IMG/VR virus record: IMGVR_UViG_2703718828_000002
Location: 1 to 27,795 of that record
Strand: one strand, 5' to 3'
DNA length: 27,795 bases
Source: a virus
Lineage: Duplodnaviria; Heunggongvirae; Uroviricota; Caudoviricetes
Below, piece after piece: positions 6,005 to 16,526 of this stretch. Below the pieces are notes generated by a model. It had not been told where the DNA came from. It ran no database searches and worked only from the letters and a program-made list of their open reading frames with translations. The stretch's first letter is position 1, and every line of letters begins with the position of its first letter. A program made the translations under genes and the position numbers.

Positions 6005-6065
6005 AATCCTGTTGACGTATCAAATATTGGATCGTAGTATCTTGGTGTATCAAATATTGAATCAA
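6005..6065 (+). promoter_or_regulatory. Immunity switch region: candidate rightward promoter with duplicated operator-like 13-mers
   Basis: TTGACG (6012-6017), 17-nt spacer, TAGTAT (6035-6040); the 13-mer GTATCAAATATTG occurs twice (6017-6029 and 6047-6059) overlapping the promoter; lies between divergent cI and apl. Confidence 0.4.
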
Positions 6066-7723: not shown

Positions 7724-7950
7724 TGGCTGATGCAATGGATCTTGTACAGCAGCGCGTTGAAGAAGAACGCCAGCGCCATATCCGTGCTGCCCGTGCCAAA
7801 ACGCCGGGCGTGTCCCGCGTGCTTTGCATTGAGTGTGAAGCGCCAATTCCGCCAGCACGCCGCCGCGCCATTCCAGGTGTGCAGCTTTGCATTACCTGTC
7901 AGGAAATCGCAGAACTGAAAGGCAAACATTACAACGGAGGTGCTGTATGA
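7723..7950 (+). CDS. DksA/TraR-type C4 zinc-finger protein
   Basis: 75 aa with CIECE...17 residues...CITCQ (Cys-x2-Cys...Cys-x2-Cys) at the C-terminus. Confidence 0.7.
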   Translation: MADAMDLVQQRVEEERQRHIRAARAKTPGVSRVLCIECEAPIPPARRRAIPGVQLCITCQEIAELKGKHYNGGAV

Positions 7951-8804
7951 GCACCATCCTGAAATGGGCGGGAAATAAAACCGCCATTATGTCCGAACTG
8001 AAAAAACACCTTCCTGCTGGCCCGCGACTGGTTGAACCTTTCGCGGGTTCCTGTGCTGTGATGATGGAGACGGATTACCCCAGCTATCTGGTTGCGGATA
8101 TTAATCCTGATTTAATCAACCTCTATAAAAAGGTTGCCGCTGATTGTGAATCGTTTATATCTCGCGCCAGAGTTTTATTTGAGATCGCAAACAGGGAGGT
8201 GGCTTATTACAACATAAGGCAGGAGTTTAATTACTCCACTGAAATTACTGATTTCATGAAAGCGGTATATTTCCTGTATCTCAATCGTCACGGTTACCGT
8301 GGTTTATGTCGCTATAACAAGAGCGGGCATTTCAACATTCCCTACGGTAATTATAAAAATCCGTATTTCCCTGAAAAAGAAATTCGCGCATTTGCAGAAA
8401 AAGCCCAGCGGGCAACGTTTATCTGCGCCAGCTTTGATGAAACGCTGGCGATGTTGAAGGCGGGGGATGTGGTGTATTGCGATCCGCCGTATGACGGCAC
8501 GTTTTCCGGTTATCACACTGACGGCTTCACTGAAGATGACCAGTATCACCTGGCATCCGTTCTTGAACATCGGTCATCAGAAGGACATCCGGTCATTGTT
8601 TCTAACAGTGACACATCCCTGATCCGTTCGCTGTATCGCAATTTTACTCACCACTACATCAAGGCAAAACGCAACATCGGTGTGGCAGCTGGCGAGGGTA
8701 AATCAGCAACAGAAATCATTGCTGTTTCCGGGCCGCGCTGCTGGGTGGGATTTGATTATTCGCGTGGCATGGACAGTTCTGCCGTGTACGGAGTACGTGC
8801 ATGA
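7947..8804 (+). CDS. dam: DNA adenine methyltransferase (Dam-like, N6-adenine)
   Basis: N-terminal LKWAGNK AdoMet-binding motif and catalytic DPPY (VYCDPPYDG). ATG 7947 with GGAGG 6 nt upstream, overlapping the previous stop (ATGA); the track start at 7887 has no RBS. Confidence 0.9.
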
Positions 8805-11215
8805 GTCATGCCGATATGAACAACTGCTGCGGCTTTAACGAGGCTACCGCAGCATTCTCATGGAACAGCCCGAAAAAGGCCATTAACCCTTATCTGGACC
8901 CGGCGGAAGTTGCGCCGGTTTCTGCGCTTTCAAACCTGATCACTCTGTACGCTGCCGATAACGAGCAGGAACAACTGCGCCGTGAGGCACTGAGTGATCA
9001 GGTCTGGGAGCGTTATTTCTTTAATGAATCCCGTGATCCTGTCCAGCGCGAAATGGAGCAGGATAAGCTAATTAGCCGGGCAAAGCTGGCGCATGAGCAG
9101 CAGCGTTTTAATCCAGACATGGTCATTCTGGCGGATGTCAACGCCCAGCCTTCCCATATCAGCAAGCCGCTGATGCAACGTATTAAATACTTCAGCAACC
9201 TGGGCAGGCCAAAGGCTTATTCCCGCTATTTGCGTGAGACGATTAAGCCATGCTTGGAACGACTGGAGCATGTACGCGACAGCCAGCTATCTGCATCTTT
9301 TCGTTTTATGGCAAGCCATGAAGGGCTGGACGGTCTGCTGATCCTGCCTGAAATGAGTCAGGATCAGGTGAAACGCCTGTCCACCCTTGTCGCTGCGCAT
9401 ATGAGCATGTGTCTTGATGCCGCTTGTGGTGATTTGTACGCCTCCGATGATGTTAAGCCGGAAGAAATCCGCAAGACATGGGAAAAGGTGGCAGCAGAAA
9501 CCCTGCGACTGGATGTCATACCGCCTGCGTTTGAGCAACTCCGCCGGAAAAGAAACCGCCGCAAACCTGTGCCCTATGAACTCATTCCGGGTTCGCTGGC
9601 GCGTATGCTGTGCGCCGACTGGTGGTATCGGAAATTATGGAAGATGCGTTGCGAATGGCGGGAAGAGCAGTTGCGTGCTGTCTGTCTGGTCAGCAAAAAA
9701 GCATCTCCCTATGTCAGCTATGAAGCCGTGATGCATAAACGTGAGCAGCGCCGTAAGTCGCTGGAGTTTTTCCGTTCTCATGAACTGGTGAACGAAGACG
9801 GCGACACGCTGGACATGGAGGATGTGGTAAACGCCAGCAGCAGCAACCCTGCGCATCGCCGCAATGAGATGATGGCCTGTGTTAAAGGCCTGGAGCTTAT
9901 CGCGGAAATGCGCGGTGACTGCGCCGTTTTCTACACCATCACCTGTCCGTCACGTTTCCATTCCACGCTAAATAACGGCAGGCCCAACCCGACCTGGACA
10001 AATGCGACGGTAAGACAAAGCAGTGATTATCTGGTTGGCATGTTTGCTGCATTTCGTAAGGCGATGCACAAAGCCGGATTGCGCTGGTATGGCGTGCGGG
10101 TGGCTGAGCCGCATCATGACGGTACAGTTCACTGGCACCTGTTGTGTTTTATGCGCAAAAAAGATCGCCGCGCCATTACTGCTTTGTTGCGTAAGTTTGC
10201 CATTCGTGAAGACCGCGAGGAGCTGGGGAATAACACGGGACCACGCTTTAAGTCTGAGTTGATTAACCCGCGCAAAGGAACGCCGACAAGCTACATCGCG
10301 AAATATATCAGTAAGAACATTGACGGGCGTGGTCTGGCTGGCGAGATCAGCAAGGAAACGGGTAAATCCCTGCGTGATAACGCTGAATACGTGAATGCCT
10401 GGGCGTCTCTGCATCGTGTTCAGCAATTCCGCTTCTTTGGCATTCCGGGGCGTCAGGCTTACCGTGAACTGCGATTGCTGGCTGGTCAGGCGGCAAGGCA
10501 ACAGGGTGACAAAAAAGCAGGTGCGCCGGTACTGGATAACCCGCGCCTTGATGCCATCCTGGCTGCTGCTGATGCTGGTTGTTTTGCCACCTACATCATG
10601 AAGCAGGGCGGCGTACTGGTTCCCCGCAAATATCACCTCATCAGAACCGCTTATGAAATCAACGAAGAGCCAACCGCCTATGGCGATCACGGTATTCGTA
10701 TTTATGGCATCTGGTCACCCATTGCAGAGGGCAAGATCTGCACTCATGCAGTGAAGTGGAAAATGGTTCGTAAGGCCGTTGACGTTCAGGAGGCGGCAGC
10801 CGACCAGGGCGCTTGCGCCCCTTGGACTCGTGGCAATAACTGTCCCCTTGCTGAAAATTTGTACCAACAAGGGAAAGACAAATCAGCTGATGGGGATACC
10901 AGAACGGATATTACCCGTATGGATGACAAGGAGTTGCACGATTACCTGCACAGTATGAACAAAAAAGAACGCCGGGAACTGGCTGCAAGATTACGCCTGG
11001 TGAAACCGAAACGGCGTAGAGACTACAAACAGCGAATTACAGACCATCAACGACAGCAGCTCGTCTATGAACTGAAGTCCAGAGGATTTGATGGCAGCGA
11101 GAAAGAGGTCGATTTACTCCTTCGCGGCGGCAGCATTCCGTCAGGAGCAGGCCTGCGTGTCTTCTATCGGAACCAGCGTTTGCAGGAAGATGATAAGTGG
11201 CGGAACCTGTATTAA
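8801..11215 (+). CDS. A: Replication initiation protein A (rolling-circle nickase, P2 gpA family)
   Basis: 804 aa with HUH-type motif [10 protein letters not shown] and paired tyrosines YIAKYISK; ATGA overlap with the dam stop; size and position match P2/186 gene A. Confidence 0.9.
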
Positions 11216-11368: not shown

Positions 11369-11557
11369 ATGCAGGACTATTTTTTGGAGTCTTTGAAGCT
11401 CCAGCGCATTGATTTTTTTCTTAAGCTTGTAGCGGCCAGTGAGTGTAGTGATGAAGAGAAGGGGCTGGCTCTGCAGTGGGTTTCTGAATTGACTGATGAA
11501 CTCATGGCAAAAATCAGAACCCACGAATACAACCGCTCAATGGATGTCATCAGTTGA
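11369..11557 (+). CDS. Small hypothetical protein, first gene of the LexA-boxed module
   Basis: ATG 11369 with AGGAGGA RBS (11359-11365); 62 aa; its TGA stop (11555-11557) is embedded in the RBS of the next gene. Confidence 0.5.
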   Translation: MQDYFLESLKLQRIDFFLKLVAASECSDEEKGLALQWVSELTDELMAKIRTHEYNRSMDVIS

Positions 11558-11567
11558 GGTGACTTTT

Positions 11568-11801
11568 ATGCGCATTGAAATAATGATCGATAAAGAGCAG
11601 AAGATTAGCCAGTCTACCCTGGACTCTCTTGAATCCGAGCTTTACCGCAATCTGAGCCCCCTGTATCCCAAAGCGGTAATTCGTATCCGTAAAGGTAGCG
11701 CCAATGGTGTTGAACTGAGCGGGTTAAAACTGGATGAAGACAAAAAGCGAGTGATAGAAATCATGCAGCAGGTCTGGGAGGACGATAGTTGGTTACATTA
11801 G
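11568..11801 (+). CDS. DinI-family protein (SOS-inducible, possible Tum-like antirepressor component)
   Basis: 77 aa MRIEIMIDKEQ...IRIRKGSANGVELSGLKLDEDKKRVIEIMQQVWEDDSWLH aligns by eye with E. coli DinI (MRIEVTIAK...ISEILQETWESADDWF); RBS GAGGTGA 11556-11562. Confidence 0.7.
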   Translation: MRIEIMIDKEQKISQSTLDSLESELYRNLSPLYPKAVIRIRKGSANGVELSGLKLDEDKKRVIEIMQQVWEDDSWLH

Positions 11802-11842
11802 CGAACAGAATTTAGCCAAGCGATAAGTCATTCATCCAAGGG

Positions 11843-11865
11843 GGCGGCGTTTGCCGCACTTTTAT
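11843..11865 (+). terminator. Candidate terminator after the DinI-like gene
   Basis: GGCGGCG-TTT-GCCGC hairpin followed by ACTTTTAT; marks the boundary between GC-rich phage DNA and the AT-rich cargo block. Confidence 0.35.
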
Positions 11866-11998
11866 GGATGTTAGAACTAGTATTTTAGATCTTTATTTTA
11901 TTTAACATTTTGATTGTTATGCATTTTATTTGTTTTTGTTACTTTTGTCTGTAAAAATTTTGTAGGGTAAAATCATCATCGAAGTCGAGTTAAAATGA

Positions 11999-12007
11999 TG
12001 CTACAAT
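11999..12007 (+). promoter_or_regulatory. Candidate extended -10 promoter for MTase copy 2
   Basis: TGcTACAAT at 11999-12007, about 27 nt upstream of the TTG start; RBS AGGGAGGA at 12021-12028. Confidence 0.3.
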
Positions 12008-12034
12008 CCTTCAAGTATAGAGGGAGGACTTATT

Positions 12035-13075
12035 TTGATTAAAGTTGTTGATCTTTTTTGCGGAGCAGGTGGCTTAACTCATGGTTTGCAACGAGCAGGG
12101 TTGAATGTGGTTGCAGGCTATGATATTGATGCTACATGTCGGTATGCTTATGAAAAAAATAACAATGCTTTATTTGTGCAAAAAAGCGTCACTGAACTTG
12201 ATGAAGGGGAAATAAGTAAGCATTTTAAGGATGCATCAATTAAAGTTTTAGCTGGATGCGCTCCATGCCAGCCATTTTCTAGTTATACAAATACTGATAA
12301 ATCAGTAAAAAAAATAAAAGACCATCGATGGTCTTTATTGTATAGCTTTGCTAAGCAAATTCAATTATGTGCTCCAGATATAGTCACAATGGAGAATGTT
12401 CCAAGAGTTATTAACCACAAAGTTTTTAAAGATTTTGTGAAGACTTTAAAGTCTGAAGGGTATTTCGTTTGGTATGATACTGTATTTTGTCCTGATTATG
12501 GAATGGCCCAAAGCCGATCTAGATTAGTGTTATTAGCGTCCAAGTTTGGCGAGATAAAACTAATCCCGCCAACACATGATAAAAATAACTATAACACTGT
12601 ACGTAGCGTTATTGGTGGATTGCCTCCTATTGATGCTGGATCGAGTGATGAGAAAGACAGACTTCATTATGCTGCATCTTTATCACCATTAAATATGGAG
12701 CGAATAAAACATTCTAAGCCAGGTGGAACATGGAAAGATTGGCCTGAGTACTTACGGGCGTCATGCCACACCAAAGAATCAGGATCTTCTTACACTGCAG
12801 TTTATGGAAGAATGAGCTGGGATAAACTTGGCTCTACAATTACAACACAATGTATAGGTTTTGGTAATGGTCGATTTGGTCATCCAGAACAAAATAGAGC
12901 TATTAGCCTAAGAGAGGCAGCTTTGCTTCAATCTTTTCCTCTAACTTATGAATTTTGGCCAGCTGAAGTAAAAGTTGAACTCAGGAATGTTGCACGACTG
13001 ATTGGTAATGCTGTGCCGGTGAGGCTCGGTGAAGTTGTTGGGCAAAGTATTATTGAACACCTTAAAAGAAAATAA
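12035..13075 (+). CDS. DNA cytosine-5 methyltransferase (Dcm-like m5C MTase), copy 2, paralogous to copy 1
   Basis: 346 aa with DLFCGAGG, GCAPCQPFS, ENV, QSRSR and GNAVPV motifs; collinear by eye with the 160..1191 protein along its whole length; TTG start with strong SD; AT-rich. Confidence 0.9.
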   Translation: MIKVVDLFCGAGGLTHGLQRAGLNVVAGYDIDATCRYAYEKNNNALFVQKSVTELDEGEISKHFKDASIKVLAGCAPCQPFSSYTNTDKSVKKIKDHRWSLLYSFAKQIQLCAPDIVTMENVPRVINHKVFKDFVKTLKSEGYFVWYDTVFCPDYGMAQSRSRLVLLASKFGEIKLIPPTHDKNNYNTVRSVIGGLPPIDAGSSDEKDRLHYAASLSPLNMERIKHSKPGGTWKDWPEYLRASCHTKESGSSYTAVYGRMSWDKLGSTITTQCIGFGNGRFGHPEQNRAISLREAALLQSFPLTYEFWPAEVKVELRNVARLIGNAVPVRLGEVVGQSIIEHLKRK

Positions 13076-13099
13076 AAAGGGCGAATCGCCCTTTTTTTT
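13074..13099. terminator. Bidirectional terminator shared by the convergent MTase and GHKL genes
   Basis: A-run, GGGCG-AAT-CGCCC hairpin, T8 run; overlaps both stop codons (13073-13075 and 13098-13100). Confidence 0.5.
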
Positions 13100-15056
13100 A
13101 GATACCATCAACAATTTTCATTATTCGTGCAGCATCATCTTTTTTGCTCTGATACTCAGAGTATGCTTGTTTGGATTGTATTATAAGATCGCTATATGTT
13201 AATACCTTTGCATTTATAGATTGTAGCTGTGAGCGAATATAATTATCTCCACTTCCGTCATAACCTTTGCCGACAAGAAAAACTACATCTATCGGTGGTA
13301 TTTTTCCGGCAGGGCAACTATTTGGGTTGTTTCTAAACCACTGCTCTGTGGCAACAACATATTTCCTTCCTTGACCTACTAATGCCAAAATATCAGGATA
13401 TACATTTGGTCTTTTCATTTCAATGATGACGTGTTTACCTGAAACGGTTTTGAAGGCTATATCAATTCTTGCACCACTTTCAGCGTCAGGGTTAACCTCT
13501 TTCAATTCCTTAGTCAGGGTTTGTTCCATAACTGTAGAACCAGTAACCCTCTCCCATGATGGGTCTAACAGCCATAAGTGGTCATAAAGATATTTTTGTA
13601 CAGCCTTCTCTAACTCATTGTCATCGGTGATTTTTTGAAATTTCTCAATAACTTTCAATCGCTGTGATGTAATCTCATAAAAAAGGCTTGCCTCAATATC
13701 ATTTACAGAAGCAAAAACCTCCCTAAAATGTTCTGAGTTTAAATCGCTAATTTTATCTAAAGCCTCAAGGTTATCTTTTATTCTTAATCTTTCAAAAGCA
13801 AGAACTGTATTTTTTAATACGGTTTTTTTTGCAATTTTCTGGTTTTCTTCATCTCCAGAAAATCTAAATGTGTTAATTTTGCCTAGTAATTTTTCGGCGC
13901 TGTTTCTTTCATGTTTTGACATGGAATCAAGCCAATCACTTACAGCAGGTGAAGTTTTTTTAACCTCGCTAAGACCTTTTGCTCTTCGCCATTCATCCCA
14001 TTCTTTATCTATTTTTTGTAATGTCCGTTCTAAGAAACCCTTAATCACAGGATAGCGTGGATCATTCTGCTGTAATTTCTGTCGGGATGAGGTTGCCATG
14101 TCAGGTTTTTCATTTTCATCTAAAAAATCTGCGACAAGTTCCCCTACTAAATAATTTGTAAAAACCTTTGCGCTTCCGAATTCAAGCAATATATCTTCTT
14201 CAAATACCCGCCCATTTGATATTACGGTTATCGTGTTGTTAGATATTTCAGGGTCTTTTTTAAGTTGAGATGGTTTCTCAACACTTCCTACATAACCAGT
14301 AATGAAATAATCTACGCCTTCAAAAGATAATTTGTTATCTAGAAGGCTTTTTTTAGAAAGATTTTTGCAAGATTTTACTCTTGCGGGATCTGAACTACCA
14401 AACTCCCATAAAAATTCAAGATCTGAAAGGAAGTCTCTATCTTCAGTAGTTATCTCAGTGTCATTGATTTTAACTATAAAATCATGACCAGGACCAATTA
14501 TGCTAAACCGTCTGGCAAGTCTTTTTCTTAGATAGGTCTGAGTTCTATCAATGGATTTTTTTAAATCCATAAGAACTATTGTCGTCCCTATACTAAAGTC
14601 TTTCGGAACATTAATAATATTTGCAACATATTGTTTACTGCTTTTTATACAGCGTTGCAATTCATCAACGTCAACTTCAAATCCCTGAGGCGTTTGGCCA
14701 ATTTTGTGAGAAAATACTTGGATTTTGTTAGCTAATGAAAACATTGCTAATTTACCAATGCCTTTTCTACCCATGACTTGTCGTTGTAATCCATCACTTT
14801 TATACCTTCCACTTTCTCTTCTGGCATATCCAACTTTTAGGAATTTATTAATGATGTCATCTTTTGACATTCCATGTCCATCATCTTTAATTATTACCTT
14901 TTCATTTTCAACATCTAGAGTGATGTCTACATTTTTAGCATCCGCATCCCAAGCATTTGAGATTATTTCAGTTAGAACAGCTGGTGTGTTAGAGTAAAGA
15001 CTCATACCTAAATGATTCAATACATTCAGGTCTATTTTAATTTCGAAATCGGACAT
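13098..15056 (-). CDS. GHKL-superfamily ATPase (MORC/MutL/Hsp90-like Bergerat fold) with C-terminal PD-(D/E)xK-like motif; candidate effector partner of MTase copy 2
   Basis: 652 aa. N-terminus carries N-box EIISNAWDADA, G1 box DDGHGM and G2 box GRKGIGKLAMFS; C-terminus carries RIDIAF...12 residues...IIEMKRP (D...ExK). ATG at rc 15054-15056 with AAGGA RBS; AT-rich. Confidence 0.8.
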   Translation of the reverse strand: MSDFEIKIDLNVLNHLGMSLYSNTPAVLTEIISNAWDADAKNVDITLDVENEKVIIKDDGHGMSKDDIINKFLKVGYARRESGRYKSDGLQRQVMGRKGIGKLAMFSLANKIQVFSHKIGQTPQGFEVDVDELQRCIKSSKQYVANIINVPKDFSIGTTIVLMDLKKSIDRTQTYLRKRLARRFSIIGPGHDFIVKINDTEITTEDRDFLSDLEFLWEFGSSDPARVKSCKNLSKKSLLDNKLSFEGVDYFITGYVGSVEKPSQLKKDPEISNNTITVISNGRVFEEDILLEFGSAKVFTNYLVGELVADFLDENEKPDMATSSRQKLQQNDPRYPVIKGFLERTLQKIDKEWDEWRRAKGLSEVKKTSPAVSDWLDSMSKHERNSAEKLLGKINTFRFSGDEENQKIAKKTVLKNTVLAFERLRIKDNLEALDKISDLNSEHFREVFASVNDIEASLFYEITSQRLKVIEKFQKITDDNELEKAVQKYLYDHLWLLDPSWERVTGSTVMEQTLTKELKEVNPDAESGARIDIAFKTVSGKHVIIEMKRPNVYPDILALVGQGRKYVVATEQWFRNNPNSCPAGKIPPIDVVFLVGKGYDGSGDNYIRSQLQSINAKVLTYSDLIIQSKQAYSEYQSKKDDAARIMKIVDGI

Positions 15057-15121
15057 ATCCTTTCCTTGCTGAAGCTTGTAGGCAGAGCTTAAGCCTACTC
15101 ATGTGAACAAAATCCCTCGAA

Positions 15122-15150
15122 ACTAAACATTGATTTTGACTAAATGTCAA
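15122..15150 (-). promoter_or_regulatory. Candidate promoter for the GHKL gene overlapping a 15-nt palindrome
   Basis: Minus strand TTGACA (rc 15145-15150), 17-nt spacer, TTTAGT (rc 15122-15127); TTGACTAAATGTCAA (15136-15150) is a perfect 5-5 inverted repeat that includes the -35. Confidence 0.35.
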
Positions 15151-15296
15151 ATGTAGATGTTGCCTTGTGTAATGCATATCTATGCTGCATGAATACGCAT
15201 GATCTCTTAAGGATCGCTTTTGTTGAAGCACGCCAGAATTGGCGGGCTTTTGCTTATGTCATGCATGTGCATGAAAACTACTACATGAAGCGGGCA

Positions 15297-15315
15297 GGCG
15301 TGGCGGGGATACGAG
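15297..15315. other. Candidate cos site (cohesive-end sequence of P2/186 type)
   Basis: GGCGTGGCGGGGATACGAG matches the first 13 nt of the 19-nt cohesive end recalled for P2/186 (GGCG[A/T]GGCGGGGAAAGCA...); located just beyond the portal gene end, as cos is in P2. Confidence 0.45.
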
Positions 15316-15403
15316 CGCGCGCAGCGGGGTAAAATGGCCAAAATCCGGCGCAGCCTCTGGCCCGCTGGCGGCCTCATTTTGCGTAGGGGGGATAAATGTC
15401 AGG

Positions 15404-15441
15404 ACAAAAAGAAACGCCCCGCAGAATGCTGCTGGGGCGTT
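15404..15441 (-). terminator. Rho-independent terminator after the portal gene
   Basis: Minus strand AACGCCCCAGCAG-CATT-CTGCGGGGCGTT followed by TCTTTTTGT; about 36 nt downstream of the Q stop. Confidence 0.5.
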
Positions 15442-15476
15442 GTGAGAATTGGTCAGTTATTGATGTTGTGAGTATG

Positions 15477-16526
15477 TCAGCCTCGTTTGCTCTTAAGTCC
15501 TAAGTCATAGGCTTCAAAACGGATCACCTCTTCACCCAGCCAGTTGTTAAGCTCCTGCAGTCGCTTTTGCAGTGGCATCAGTTCATTGCGGACGAAAACA
15601 CGGCTCGCCTTTTCCACATCACCGAAGCCACCAGTGTTGTTGGGAATGATACCCATCATTTGCGGCGGCACACGATGCGCCGCCATCATGTCGTCCCGGC
15701 TTACGTTCTTGATGTTCAGAAACTCATCCTTCGCCGCGACTTCTGATAACGGGATAATCTGAAGTCCGTCCTTTTTGCCGTTAGGAGAGTACATAAACAG
15801 ATTGCGGAAGTTACCTGGTCCTTTGGCGCTTTTCATTGCATTGCGGAGGTTGTTCACATCCTCCTGGTTTTGTGCGGCGTCGGTCATGTACATGATGAAG
15901 CCTGCATGACTGCCGTTGATGTAATACTTCCGGCGGAACAGCGTGGCGGACTCGTTGAGCAGGGCTGACGGAATGGCAGAAAGATAACCGGGCAGGCCGT
16001 AGATCTCCTGGTTGATGTCCGGTTCCATCAGATGAAAAATGCTGCCTTTCGCGAACTGATACGGCTGGGTTGTCATACCGTATTGCACAAACCAGTAGGT
16101 ATCCAGGTCTAACCCGCGTCGGGTGTATTTTGCCAGAGCAGGCTCTAGGGCGATAACTTCACCGAAGCGGTTCGTGCGTTTCTCCAGGTAGGCGTTACCA
16201 AATACCAGATAGTCCTGCACAAAACGTGAAAAAGCCTGCTGGCTGAGCAGCGGGTGAGGGATGTAGGTGCTGGTCAGAATGTTGCATTTCACCGCAATCG
16301 GTGAGCTGTGATGCACGGCGGCGCGGAAGGTTCGCGCCAGTCCGTCGAAACTCACAGGCGGCTCATACCAGCGATCCATCTGTACGCATTCCACATAGTC
16401 CAGCAGTTCACGGCGGTCCAGAACAGGAACGGGATCGCCGAAGCTGAATGCTTCGGCTGTAGTTTGACTTTTAAGCTGGATCTGTTTCGTCGCCGCAGCG
16501 CGGTTCTTCTTACTCTTTCCCATCAA
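15477..16526 (-). CDS. Q: Portal protein (P2 gpQ)
   Basis: 349 aa; extended collinearity with P2 Q as recalled (...AFSFGDPVPVLDRRELLDYVEC...WYEPPVSF...AVHHSSPI...). ATGA overlap with the terminase gene. Confidence 0.9.
   Translation of the reverse strand: MMGKSKKNRAAATKQIQLKSQTTAEAFSFGDPVPVLDRRELLDYVECVQMDRWYEPPVSFDGLARTFRAAVHHSSPIAVKCNILTSTYIPHPLLSQQAFSRFVQDYLVFGNAYLEKRTNRFGEVIALEPALAKYTRRGLDLDTYWFVQYGMTTQPYQFAKGSIFHLMEPDINQEIYGLPGYLSAIPSALLNESATLFRRKYYINGSHAGFIMYMTDAAQNQEDVNNLRNAMKSAKGPGNFRNLFMYSPNGKKDGLQIIPLSEVAAKDEFLNIKNVSRDDMMAAHRVPPQMMGIIPNNTGGFGDVEKASRVFVRNELMPLQKRLQELNNWLGEEVIRFEAYDLGLKSKRG

Follow-up and report, generated by a model that had tools for sequence, protein, structure and literature searches.

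The gene for a protein with a GHKL ATPase domain lies in a 27,795-nucleotide stretch of viral DNA, which we refer to below as the window. Just upstream of this gene an inverted repeat overlaps a putative −35 element, and the initial annotation had proposed that a dimeric regulator binds there and occludes the promoter, by analogy with the controller-protein operators of restriction-modification systems. Is the repeat an operator, and if it is not, what is the stretch in which it is found? Our answer is that the flagged stretch is most likely a commonplace promoter, belonging to a restriction-modification cassette of a familiar kind that occupies a familiar phage hotspot. The features on which the argument draws are collected in Table 1.

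Table 1. Features of the window that bear on the endonuclease promoter, and the promoter spacer in six variants of the cassette
Feature	Coordinates	Strand	Description
Replication gene A (Phage_GPA)	8801–11215		
Methyltransferase promoter (predicted)	11977–12007	+	CATCGAAG (−35 region, TCGAAG), 17 nt, extended −10 TGCTACAAT
C5 cytosine DNA methyltransferase gene	12035–13075	+	Convergent with the endonuclease gene; Pfam DNA_methylase, PADLOC MTase_II, TIGR00675
Bidirectional intrinsic terminator (predicted)	13074–13096	.	Between the convergent genes; 10-bp stem, T-runs on both strands; −13.2 and −12.7 kcal/mol
BbrUII/HgiDII-family (paraMORC3) Type II restriction endonuclease gene	13098–15056	−	NF050001, PADLOC, Pfam, D532...E546-x-K548
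Ribosome-binding region (predicted)	15061–15071	−	CAGCAAGGAAA; GCAAGGAAA invariant in six relatives; ending 4 nt before the ATG at 15056
−10 block (predicted)	15122–15129	−	TGTTTAGT; hexamer TTTAGT; invariant in 6/6 relatives, at a fixed 17 nt from TTGACA
Interrupted inverted repeat	15135–15151	.	TTTGAC-N5-GTCAAA; left arm (minus strand), −35 region; right arm, variable spacer
−35 block (predicted)	15145–15152	−	ATTTGACA; hexamer TTGACA at 15150–15145; invariant in 6/6 sequence-distinct relatives; in the top-scoring intergenic promoter-like site
Junction of cargo and conserved cos-proximal backbone	15168–15175	.	Homology to about 1200 E. coli genomes begins only there
Intrinsic terminator past portal gene Q (predicted)	15404–15441	−	−20 kcal/mol, z = −4.0, then UUUCUUUUU (U-run); conserved phage backbone
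Portal gene Q	15477–16526		
Spacer TTGACA–TTTAGT, variant A (window)			TTTAGTCAAAATCAATG
Spacer TTGACA–TTTAGT, variant B (Serratia, L082)			TCCATTTTAAATGGATG
Spacer TTGACA–TTTAGT, variant C (Cronobacter, L089)			TTCGTTCAAAATCAATG
Spacer TTGACA–TTTAGT, variant G (L187)			ATTATGCTAAATCAATG
Spacer TTGACA–TTTAGT, variant H (L189)			TCTGCCTCATTTCAATG
Spacer TTGACA–TTTAGT, variant J (L190)			ATCACCCAAAACAACTG

A Restriction-Modification Cassette in a Prophage Hotspot

The window represents a 186-type prophage of the P2 family. It encodes a CI repressor (Phage_CI_repr and Phage_CI_C), CII (CP76), and an integrase, together with a Dam-like methyltransferase, the replication protein GpA, the portal protein Q, and a terminase. 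A low-GC cassette sits between a DinI-like gene (11496–11801) and cos/portal Q. The stretch from 11700 to 15600 is 100% identical to two E. coli chromosomes, and among the 1211 E. coli genomes that share the flanks of the prophage only two share its cargo. At the junction with the backbone, the block TCATGCAGCATAG.CATGC is seen in relatives. The methyltransferase and endonuclease genes of the cassette are thus cargo in the GpA–GpQ (tin/old-type) hotspot of a 186-like P2-family prophage, a defense hotspot of P2-like phages that has been described previously (Rousset et al. 2022, PMC9122126; PMC13586616). As in the tin/old hotspot of P2, the cargo lies beside cos and is replaced between otherwise homologous prophages, but unlike typical tin/old cargo it is a classical restriction-modification pair rather than an abortive-infection gene such as old (PMC9122126; PMC13586616). 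At the equivalent position in Escherichia phage PhiR44_1 there is a pair, 78% identical, whose annotations read "ParaMORC3" and "Dcm."

Several other features of the prophage were observed. The gene for the Dam-like enzyme, which is of the D12 N6-adenine type, belongs to the phage early operon (7887–8804, plus strand), so that the prophage carries two DNA methyltransferases. The cohesive-end sequence of cos is likely to be GGCGTGGCGGGGATACGAG at 15297–15315, which we take to be of the 186 type, and the conserved backbone has a terminator-like hairpin on the plus strand at 15231–15244. Serratia and Pantoea-type relatives have extra cargo across cos, between the portal and endonuclease genes (L082:1928–2272; L088:1792–2546; L192:35–795), consisting of HicB or of a DUF1493 and DUF8209 pair; because such relatives hold cargo on the other side of cos, both of its flanks evidently accept insertions.

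The product of the minus-strand gene had been designated a GHKL effector. The GHKL domain is indeed present at its N-terminus (Pfam HATPase_c_3 at residues 26–133), but the protein is better labeled a restriction endonuclease of the BbrUII/HgiDII family. Residues 4–651 match the NCBIfam equivalog NF050001 with 752 bits (cut-off 550), PADLOC recognizes the protein as REase_II (9e-91), and the RecB-like nuclease motif at its C-terminus, D532...E546-x-K548, does not vary among 15 homologues, the most distant of which are 45% identical. The family is the paraMORC3 family of Iyer et al., for which a RecB-like E-D-ExK nuclease motif has been described (PMC2292703), and R.HgiDII has been reported to consist of an N-terminal GHKL domain and an unassigned C-terminal domain (PMC2441816). 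The likeness to HgiDII and BbrUII therefore extends from the full-length equivalog match to the N-terminal GHKL domain, the C-terminal D...ExK motif, and the adjacent gene for a DNA methyltransferase (PMC2441816, PMC2292703).

The partner of the endonuclease is a C5 methyltransferase, in which the Pfam DNA_methylase domain takes up residues 2–340 of 346, and the two genes were paired in all of the close relatives examined. M.HgiDII is a C5 methyltransferase as well. Unlike the partner here, M.BbrUII has been reported to be an N6-adenine methyltransferase (PMC5829577). The comparison with restriction-modification systems that was made in the initial annotation proves to be apt, the GHKL gene being that of a BbrUII/HgiDII-family endonuclease paired with a C5 methyltransferase. 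The characterized family members HgiDII and BbrUII recognize GTCGAC. This sequence occurs in the window only at 1938 and 24580, that is, twice as compared to about 6.4 occurrences expected from base composition; the scarcity, which is not significant alone, is a weak hint of avoidance fitting SalI-type specificity. Upstream of distant HgiDII-family genes (L002–L081), some ORFs look by eye like Vsr very-short-patch repair endonucleases (...HGCFWHGH...), which would fit a pairing with C5 methyltransferases.

The Probable Promoter of the Endonuclease Gene

On the minus strand, TTGACA (15150–15145) is followed after exactly 17 nucleotides by TTTAGT (15127–15122), confirming the pair of hexamers that had been proposed for the effector strand. 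TTGACA matches the σ70 consensus at all six positions. TTTAGT matches it at four of six and lacks an A at position 2, which is why a consensus promoter scan left the site unlisted; an A at −11 is normally essential in the −10 hexamer. Two other registers can be read, namely, TGn-TTAGTT at 18 nucleotides and TAGTTT (a TAnnnT pattern) at 19 nucleotides, and so the true register is ambiguous, the −10 element appearing weak in every one of the three. Because of its poor −10 element, the promoter, despite a consensus −35, is probably weak overall. In a scan of both strands of the window with a position-weight matrix of approximate base frequencies, the site scored 12.3 bits and ranked ninth among all positions; other sites in the intergenic region upstream of the endonuclease gene scored 6.0 bits or less.

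The surroundings of the gene also bear on its expression. The predicted terminator past portal gene Q should insulate the endonuclease gene, such that late transcripts should not reach it. Given this terminator, and given that the cargo begins at about 15168, the endonuclease gene would need a promoter of its own within about 110 bp.

To compare upstream DNA, we collected close relatives of the endonuclease together with their upstream sequences, among which there were six sequence-distinct variants whose endonucleases are about 90–91% identical in protein sequence to that of the window. The close relatives all lie in the same hotspot of related prophages, as was seen wherever a contig reached the flanking genes, and hence their contexts are not independent. 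Five variants whose coding sequences could be aligned in register are 77–82% identical in nucleotide sequence, with a pairwise identity of 47–58% at third codon positions, only 16.6% of which are invariant across the five. Judging from this low identity and low invariance, neutral sites among the relatives are close to saturated. Within the approximately 110 nucleotides that separate the start codon from the backbone junction, only ATTTGACA, TGTTTAGT, and GCAAGGAAA are invariant in the six relatives; the region upstream of the −35 hexamer, the first 13 nucleotides of the spacer, and the leader are scrambled. In all six variants exactly 17 nucleotides separate the two promoter blocks, and the sequence of this spacer is different in each (Table 1). 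In the right arm of the repeat, the number of positions (out of six) that match the left arm in register is 6, 5, 4, 3, 3, and 1 in the six variants, with only one base of the arm being invariant. Since the spacer differs in every variant while both promoter blocks stay, the right arm is unconstrained, and the pattern of blocks is that of a classical promoter footprint. Clades at 78–83% identity have a different but equivalent pair of hexamers, TTG[AC]TT-17-TATCTT, located about as far from the start codon.

A BLAST search with 15050–15172 returned only the two identical E. coli genomes and no phage, and at BLAST distances the segment was not found with other cargo. A scan of viral contigs for the promoter pattern (TTGACAT-N13-ATGTTTAGTTT) retrieved only two known prophages and one unrelated match, and a scan of genome contigs with the family alignment retrieved only relatives of 44% identity or less, which are too distant for a comparison of non-coding DNA.

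The promoter of the GHKL gene that had been placed here is thus upheld by the invariant hexamer blocks and their spacing, the scrambled flanks, the best σ70-like score in the intergenic region, and the terminator past the portal gene: the interval 15122–15150 is very probably the core promoter of the endonuclease gene. We envision that 15122–15152 (minus strand) would serve as a constitutive promoter of the σ70 type, with RNA polymerase using the consensus −35 element TTGACA and a weak −10 element within TGTTTAGTTT. Transcription would then start near 15114–17 and generate a leader of about 60 nucleotides without significant predicted structure; when the leader RNAs of the six variants were folded, none had significant structure (z = −0.9 to +1.4). 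A hairpin with 6-bp arms, GTAGGC-N9-GCCTAC, is found in the predicted leader (15078–15098, minus strand). This hairpin is not a conserved one, the leader as a whole has no significant fold, and two HindIII-like motifs, AAGCTT/GCTTAAGC, lie close by.

The Inverted Repeat and Its Alternative Readings

What, then, is the repeat? The sequence TTGACTAAATGTCAA is located at 15136–15150 on the plus strand, and on rechecking, both its letters and its coordinates proved to be right. It had been described as a perfect 15-nucleotide palindrome, but its center, TAAAT, is not self-complementary, and it is therefore an interrupted inverted repeat, whose 5-bp arms extend to 6 bp (TTTGAC-N5-GTCAAA, 15135–15151). 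Repeats of this kind are not unusual in the window: there are 34 5-5-5 inverted repeats as compared to 28.9 ± 5.7 in shuffled sequences, and 14 6-5-6 inverted repeats as compared to 7.8 ± 3.1, with four of the latter in the AT-rich cassette. Likewise, when the local 63-nucleotide region was shuffled, 15.8% of the shuffles contained an inverted repeat whose arms were 6 or longer and whose spacer was no longer than 9. Because its frequency is at the level of chance and its register is not conserved in the relatives, we consider the repeat most likely to be a chance feature that is specific to its own lineage and not a conserved site for the binding of a regulator. Complementarity in register among the five relatives has a mean of 3.2 of 6, which is apparently above that of random pairing; the excess is probably due to a mid-spacer rich in A that lies opposite the conserved TTT. 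The repeat would exist only because the variable spacer of this lineage happens to hold GTCAAA opposite the −35 region. All told, it is likely that the flagged stretch is the core promoter of the restriction-endonuclease gene and that the palindrome it carries is there by chance.

How does this compare with a regulatory role for the repeat? In one reading, the repeat is the operator of a dimeric regulator whose gene is located outside the cassette and which, by occluding the −35 element and the spacer, would repress or delay expression of the endonuclease. Such an operator would be well placed, as the repeat overlaps the −35 hexamer and the first half of the spacer, where binding would be repressive. 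Moreover, the Serratia relative has a different perfect 21-nucleotide palindrome in the same spacer, and the Cronobacter relative keeps five of the six positions in register. Against such an operator are the chance-level frequency of the repeat, the unconstrained right arm in the six relatives, and the absence of similar sites elsewhere in the window, in which there are 10 matches with three or fewer mismatches as compared to 15.8 expected. A further argument against it is that the cassette contains no gene for a regulator, as had been remarked before and is borne out by the absence of any ORF with a helix-turn-helix within the cassette. The interval 15057–15476 holds only spurious ORFs of 22–64 amino acids, none with a significant Pfam match, and there is no ORF of 20 amino acids or more between the DinI-like gene and the methyltransferase gene. 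Nor is the repeat like the operators of the prophage's own repressor. In the immunity region (6012–6063), two 22-nucleotide direct repeats, each with a near-palindrome ATCNAATATTNGAT, are spaced 30 bp apart; the two copies, ATCAAATATTGGAT at 6019 and ATCAAATATTGAAT at 6049, are at and just downstream of a promoter, TTGACG-17-TAGTAT, and are presumably 186-type CI operators at pR. No match to ATCNAATATTNGAT within three mismatches was found in 15050–15180, and control of the endonuclease promoter by CI was rejected, the CI operators having no counterpart there. Inspection by eye revealed no TGT-N12-ACA dyad of the Ogr activator type, no cox-box, and no convincing FNR, CRP, or IHF site. The more specific proposal of a controller-protein operator of the PvuII or BamHI type can be judged against the C-box consensus, GACT-N3-AGTC-N4-GACT-N3-AGTC (PMC2175313). 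It is the case that GACTAAATGTC at 15138–15148 matches GACT-N3-AGTC at seven of eight positions and that half-box 2A of PvuII, too, overlaps a −35 hexamer (PMC2175313), but single boxes with one mismatch occur seven times in the window (6.07 expected), a double box is absent from the window even when three mismatches are allowed, and no C gene is located upstream of the endonuclease gene. Also, a profile for Xre-type helix-turn-helix proteins (home-made from four seeds and of low sensitivity) gave nothing below E = 1 upstream of the endonuclease gene in 80 distant loci of the family. With its single box at chance level, no double box, and no C gene, a C-box operator is effectively refuted. For the operator at large, the loss of the right arm in the relatives, the chance frequency, the lack of a controller or helix-turn-helix ORF and of a double C-box, and the dissimilarity to CI operators lead us to set aside the proposal of the initial annotation, to which we assign only a small probability.

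Other readings dispense with a dedicated regulator. A switch of the CfrBI type, in which the promoter contains the recognition site of the system itself and expression is tuned by methylation of that site, is suggested by the presence in the arms of GAC and GTC, the two halves of GTCGAC. These half-sites are, however, in the wrong order and 5 nucleotides apart, and because GTCGAC is absent from the cassette, including the promoter, we consider such a switch highly improbable. Scarcely better is the prospect that the repeat acts as a nucleic-acid hairpin (a terminator, an attenuator, or a cruciform) and not as a site for a protein. As single-stranded DNA it folds with −5.2 kcal/mol (z = −2.5) and has an additional outer stem, AACAT/ATGTT, and the change from the window to the Serratia sequence includes one compensatory pair in an overlapping dyad; yet the stem is weak and AT-rich, is not followed by a T-run, is not conserved in the other variants, and is upstream of the inferred start of transcription, the leaders lack significant structure (z between −0.9 and +1.4), and a proper terminator is already present upstream, past the portal gene. 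A hairpin is thus very unlikely. Finally, it could be asked whether the two conserved 8-nucleotide blocks are a promoter at all or some other signal, such as a cassette-boundary or recombination motif, as might be supposed from the lack of an A at −11 and from their position only about 20–45 bp inside the cargo junction. That the blocks comprise a −35 hexamer with six of six matches and a T-rich −10 preceded by TG at the optimal distance of 17 nucleotides, that another clade has, at roughly this position, a hexamer pair of different sequence, and that the stretch separating the blocks from the junction varies argue instead for a promoter, and we regard a non-promoter signal as unlikely.

The palindrome of the Serratia relative deserves separate mention. 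This perfect 21-nucleotide palindrome, ACATCCATTTTAAATGGATGT (L082:2912–2932, and also in L083 and L084), exactly fills the spacer of the endonuclease promoter and has a P value of about 0.002 (0.2% of shuffles). It may be the result of a templated quasi-palindrome mutation, which is speculation, or it may be a lineage-specific operator. Conceivably, the variable spacer is a hot spot for lineage-specific dyad operators, each evolved separately (TTTGAC-N5-GTCAAA in E. coli, ACATCCATTTTAAATGGATGT in Serratia) and bound by a dimeric factor that is possibly the GHKL endonuclease or the methyltransferase itself. Because the Serratia palindrome and the repeat of the window share the spacer, we leave a slim probability for functional dyads of this kind; if real, they would represent controller-free autoregulation of a paraMORC3 restriction system.

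Proposed Promoter Asymmetry and Comparison with Known Systems

Meanwhile, an ordinary promoter for the endonuclease, bearing a chance repeat, raises the issue of how methylation would precede restriction. The methyltransferase gene has a predicted promoter of its own, in which C.TCGA.G, 17 nucleotides, and TG.TACAAT are unchanged in all 10 variants compared, every clade being represented; judged by sequence, its conservation is much deeper than that of the endonuclease promoter. In the clades at 78–83% identity, the −35 region of the methyltransferase promoter is mostly an 8-bp palindrome, CATCGATG (four of five variants), which could be a mere −35 element or a regulatory site. The methyltransferase gene is directly downstream of the phage early operon. 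We infer that the order of events is secured without a controller protein, by promoter asymmetry in combination with gene position. The methyltransferase would be transcribed from a promoter with an extended −10 element, TGnTACAAT, and the endonuclease from one with a consensus −35 element and a defective −10 element, the relative strengths being predicted from sequence, and the location of the methyltransferase gene past the early operon could add a temporal order.

This arrangement resembles that of Type II restriction-modification systems that do without a controller protein and use constitutive promoters of unequal strength, in that the two genes have separate promoters, that of the methyltransferase being apparently strong and conserved and that of the endonuclease looking weaker, and in that there is no C gene. 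It departs from such controller-free systems in the position of the methyltransferase gene directly past a phage early operon. In systems of the SsoII, EcoRII, and MspI type, an N-terminal helix-turn-helix of the methyltransferase mediates autoregulation. Like these, the cassette is a Type II system that lacks a C protein and has a methyltransferase of the C5 class, but this enzyme has no N-terminal extension (the Pfam domain begins at residue 2), and the genes of the cassette are convergent with promoters 3 kb apart. Finally, the dyad over a −35 element upstream of the endonuclease gene, with one box matching at seven of eight positions, recalls the C-protein/C-box control of PvuII, BamHI, and Esp1396I (PMC2175313), from which the cassette differs in lacking a C gene, a second box, and a conserved GT spacer, and in that the dyad is not conserved among relatives.

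In sum, a speculative operator is removed from the annotation of this prophage, and what had been a GHKL effector becomes an HgiDII-family enzyme of a classical two-gene restriction-modification cassette in the P2/186 defense hotspot. Both promoters, that of the endonuclease and that of the methyltransferase, have left a clean phylogenetic footprint, and these two footprints could guide the cloning of hotspot cassettes with their native promoters. They also suggest that the control of establishment in this family relies on promoter asymmetry rather than on a controller protein.
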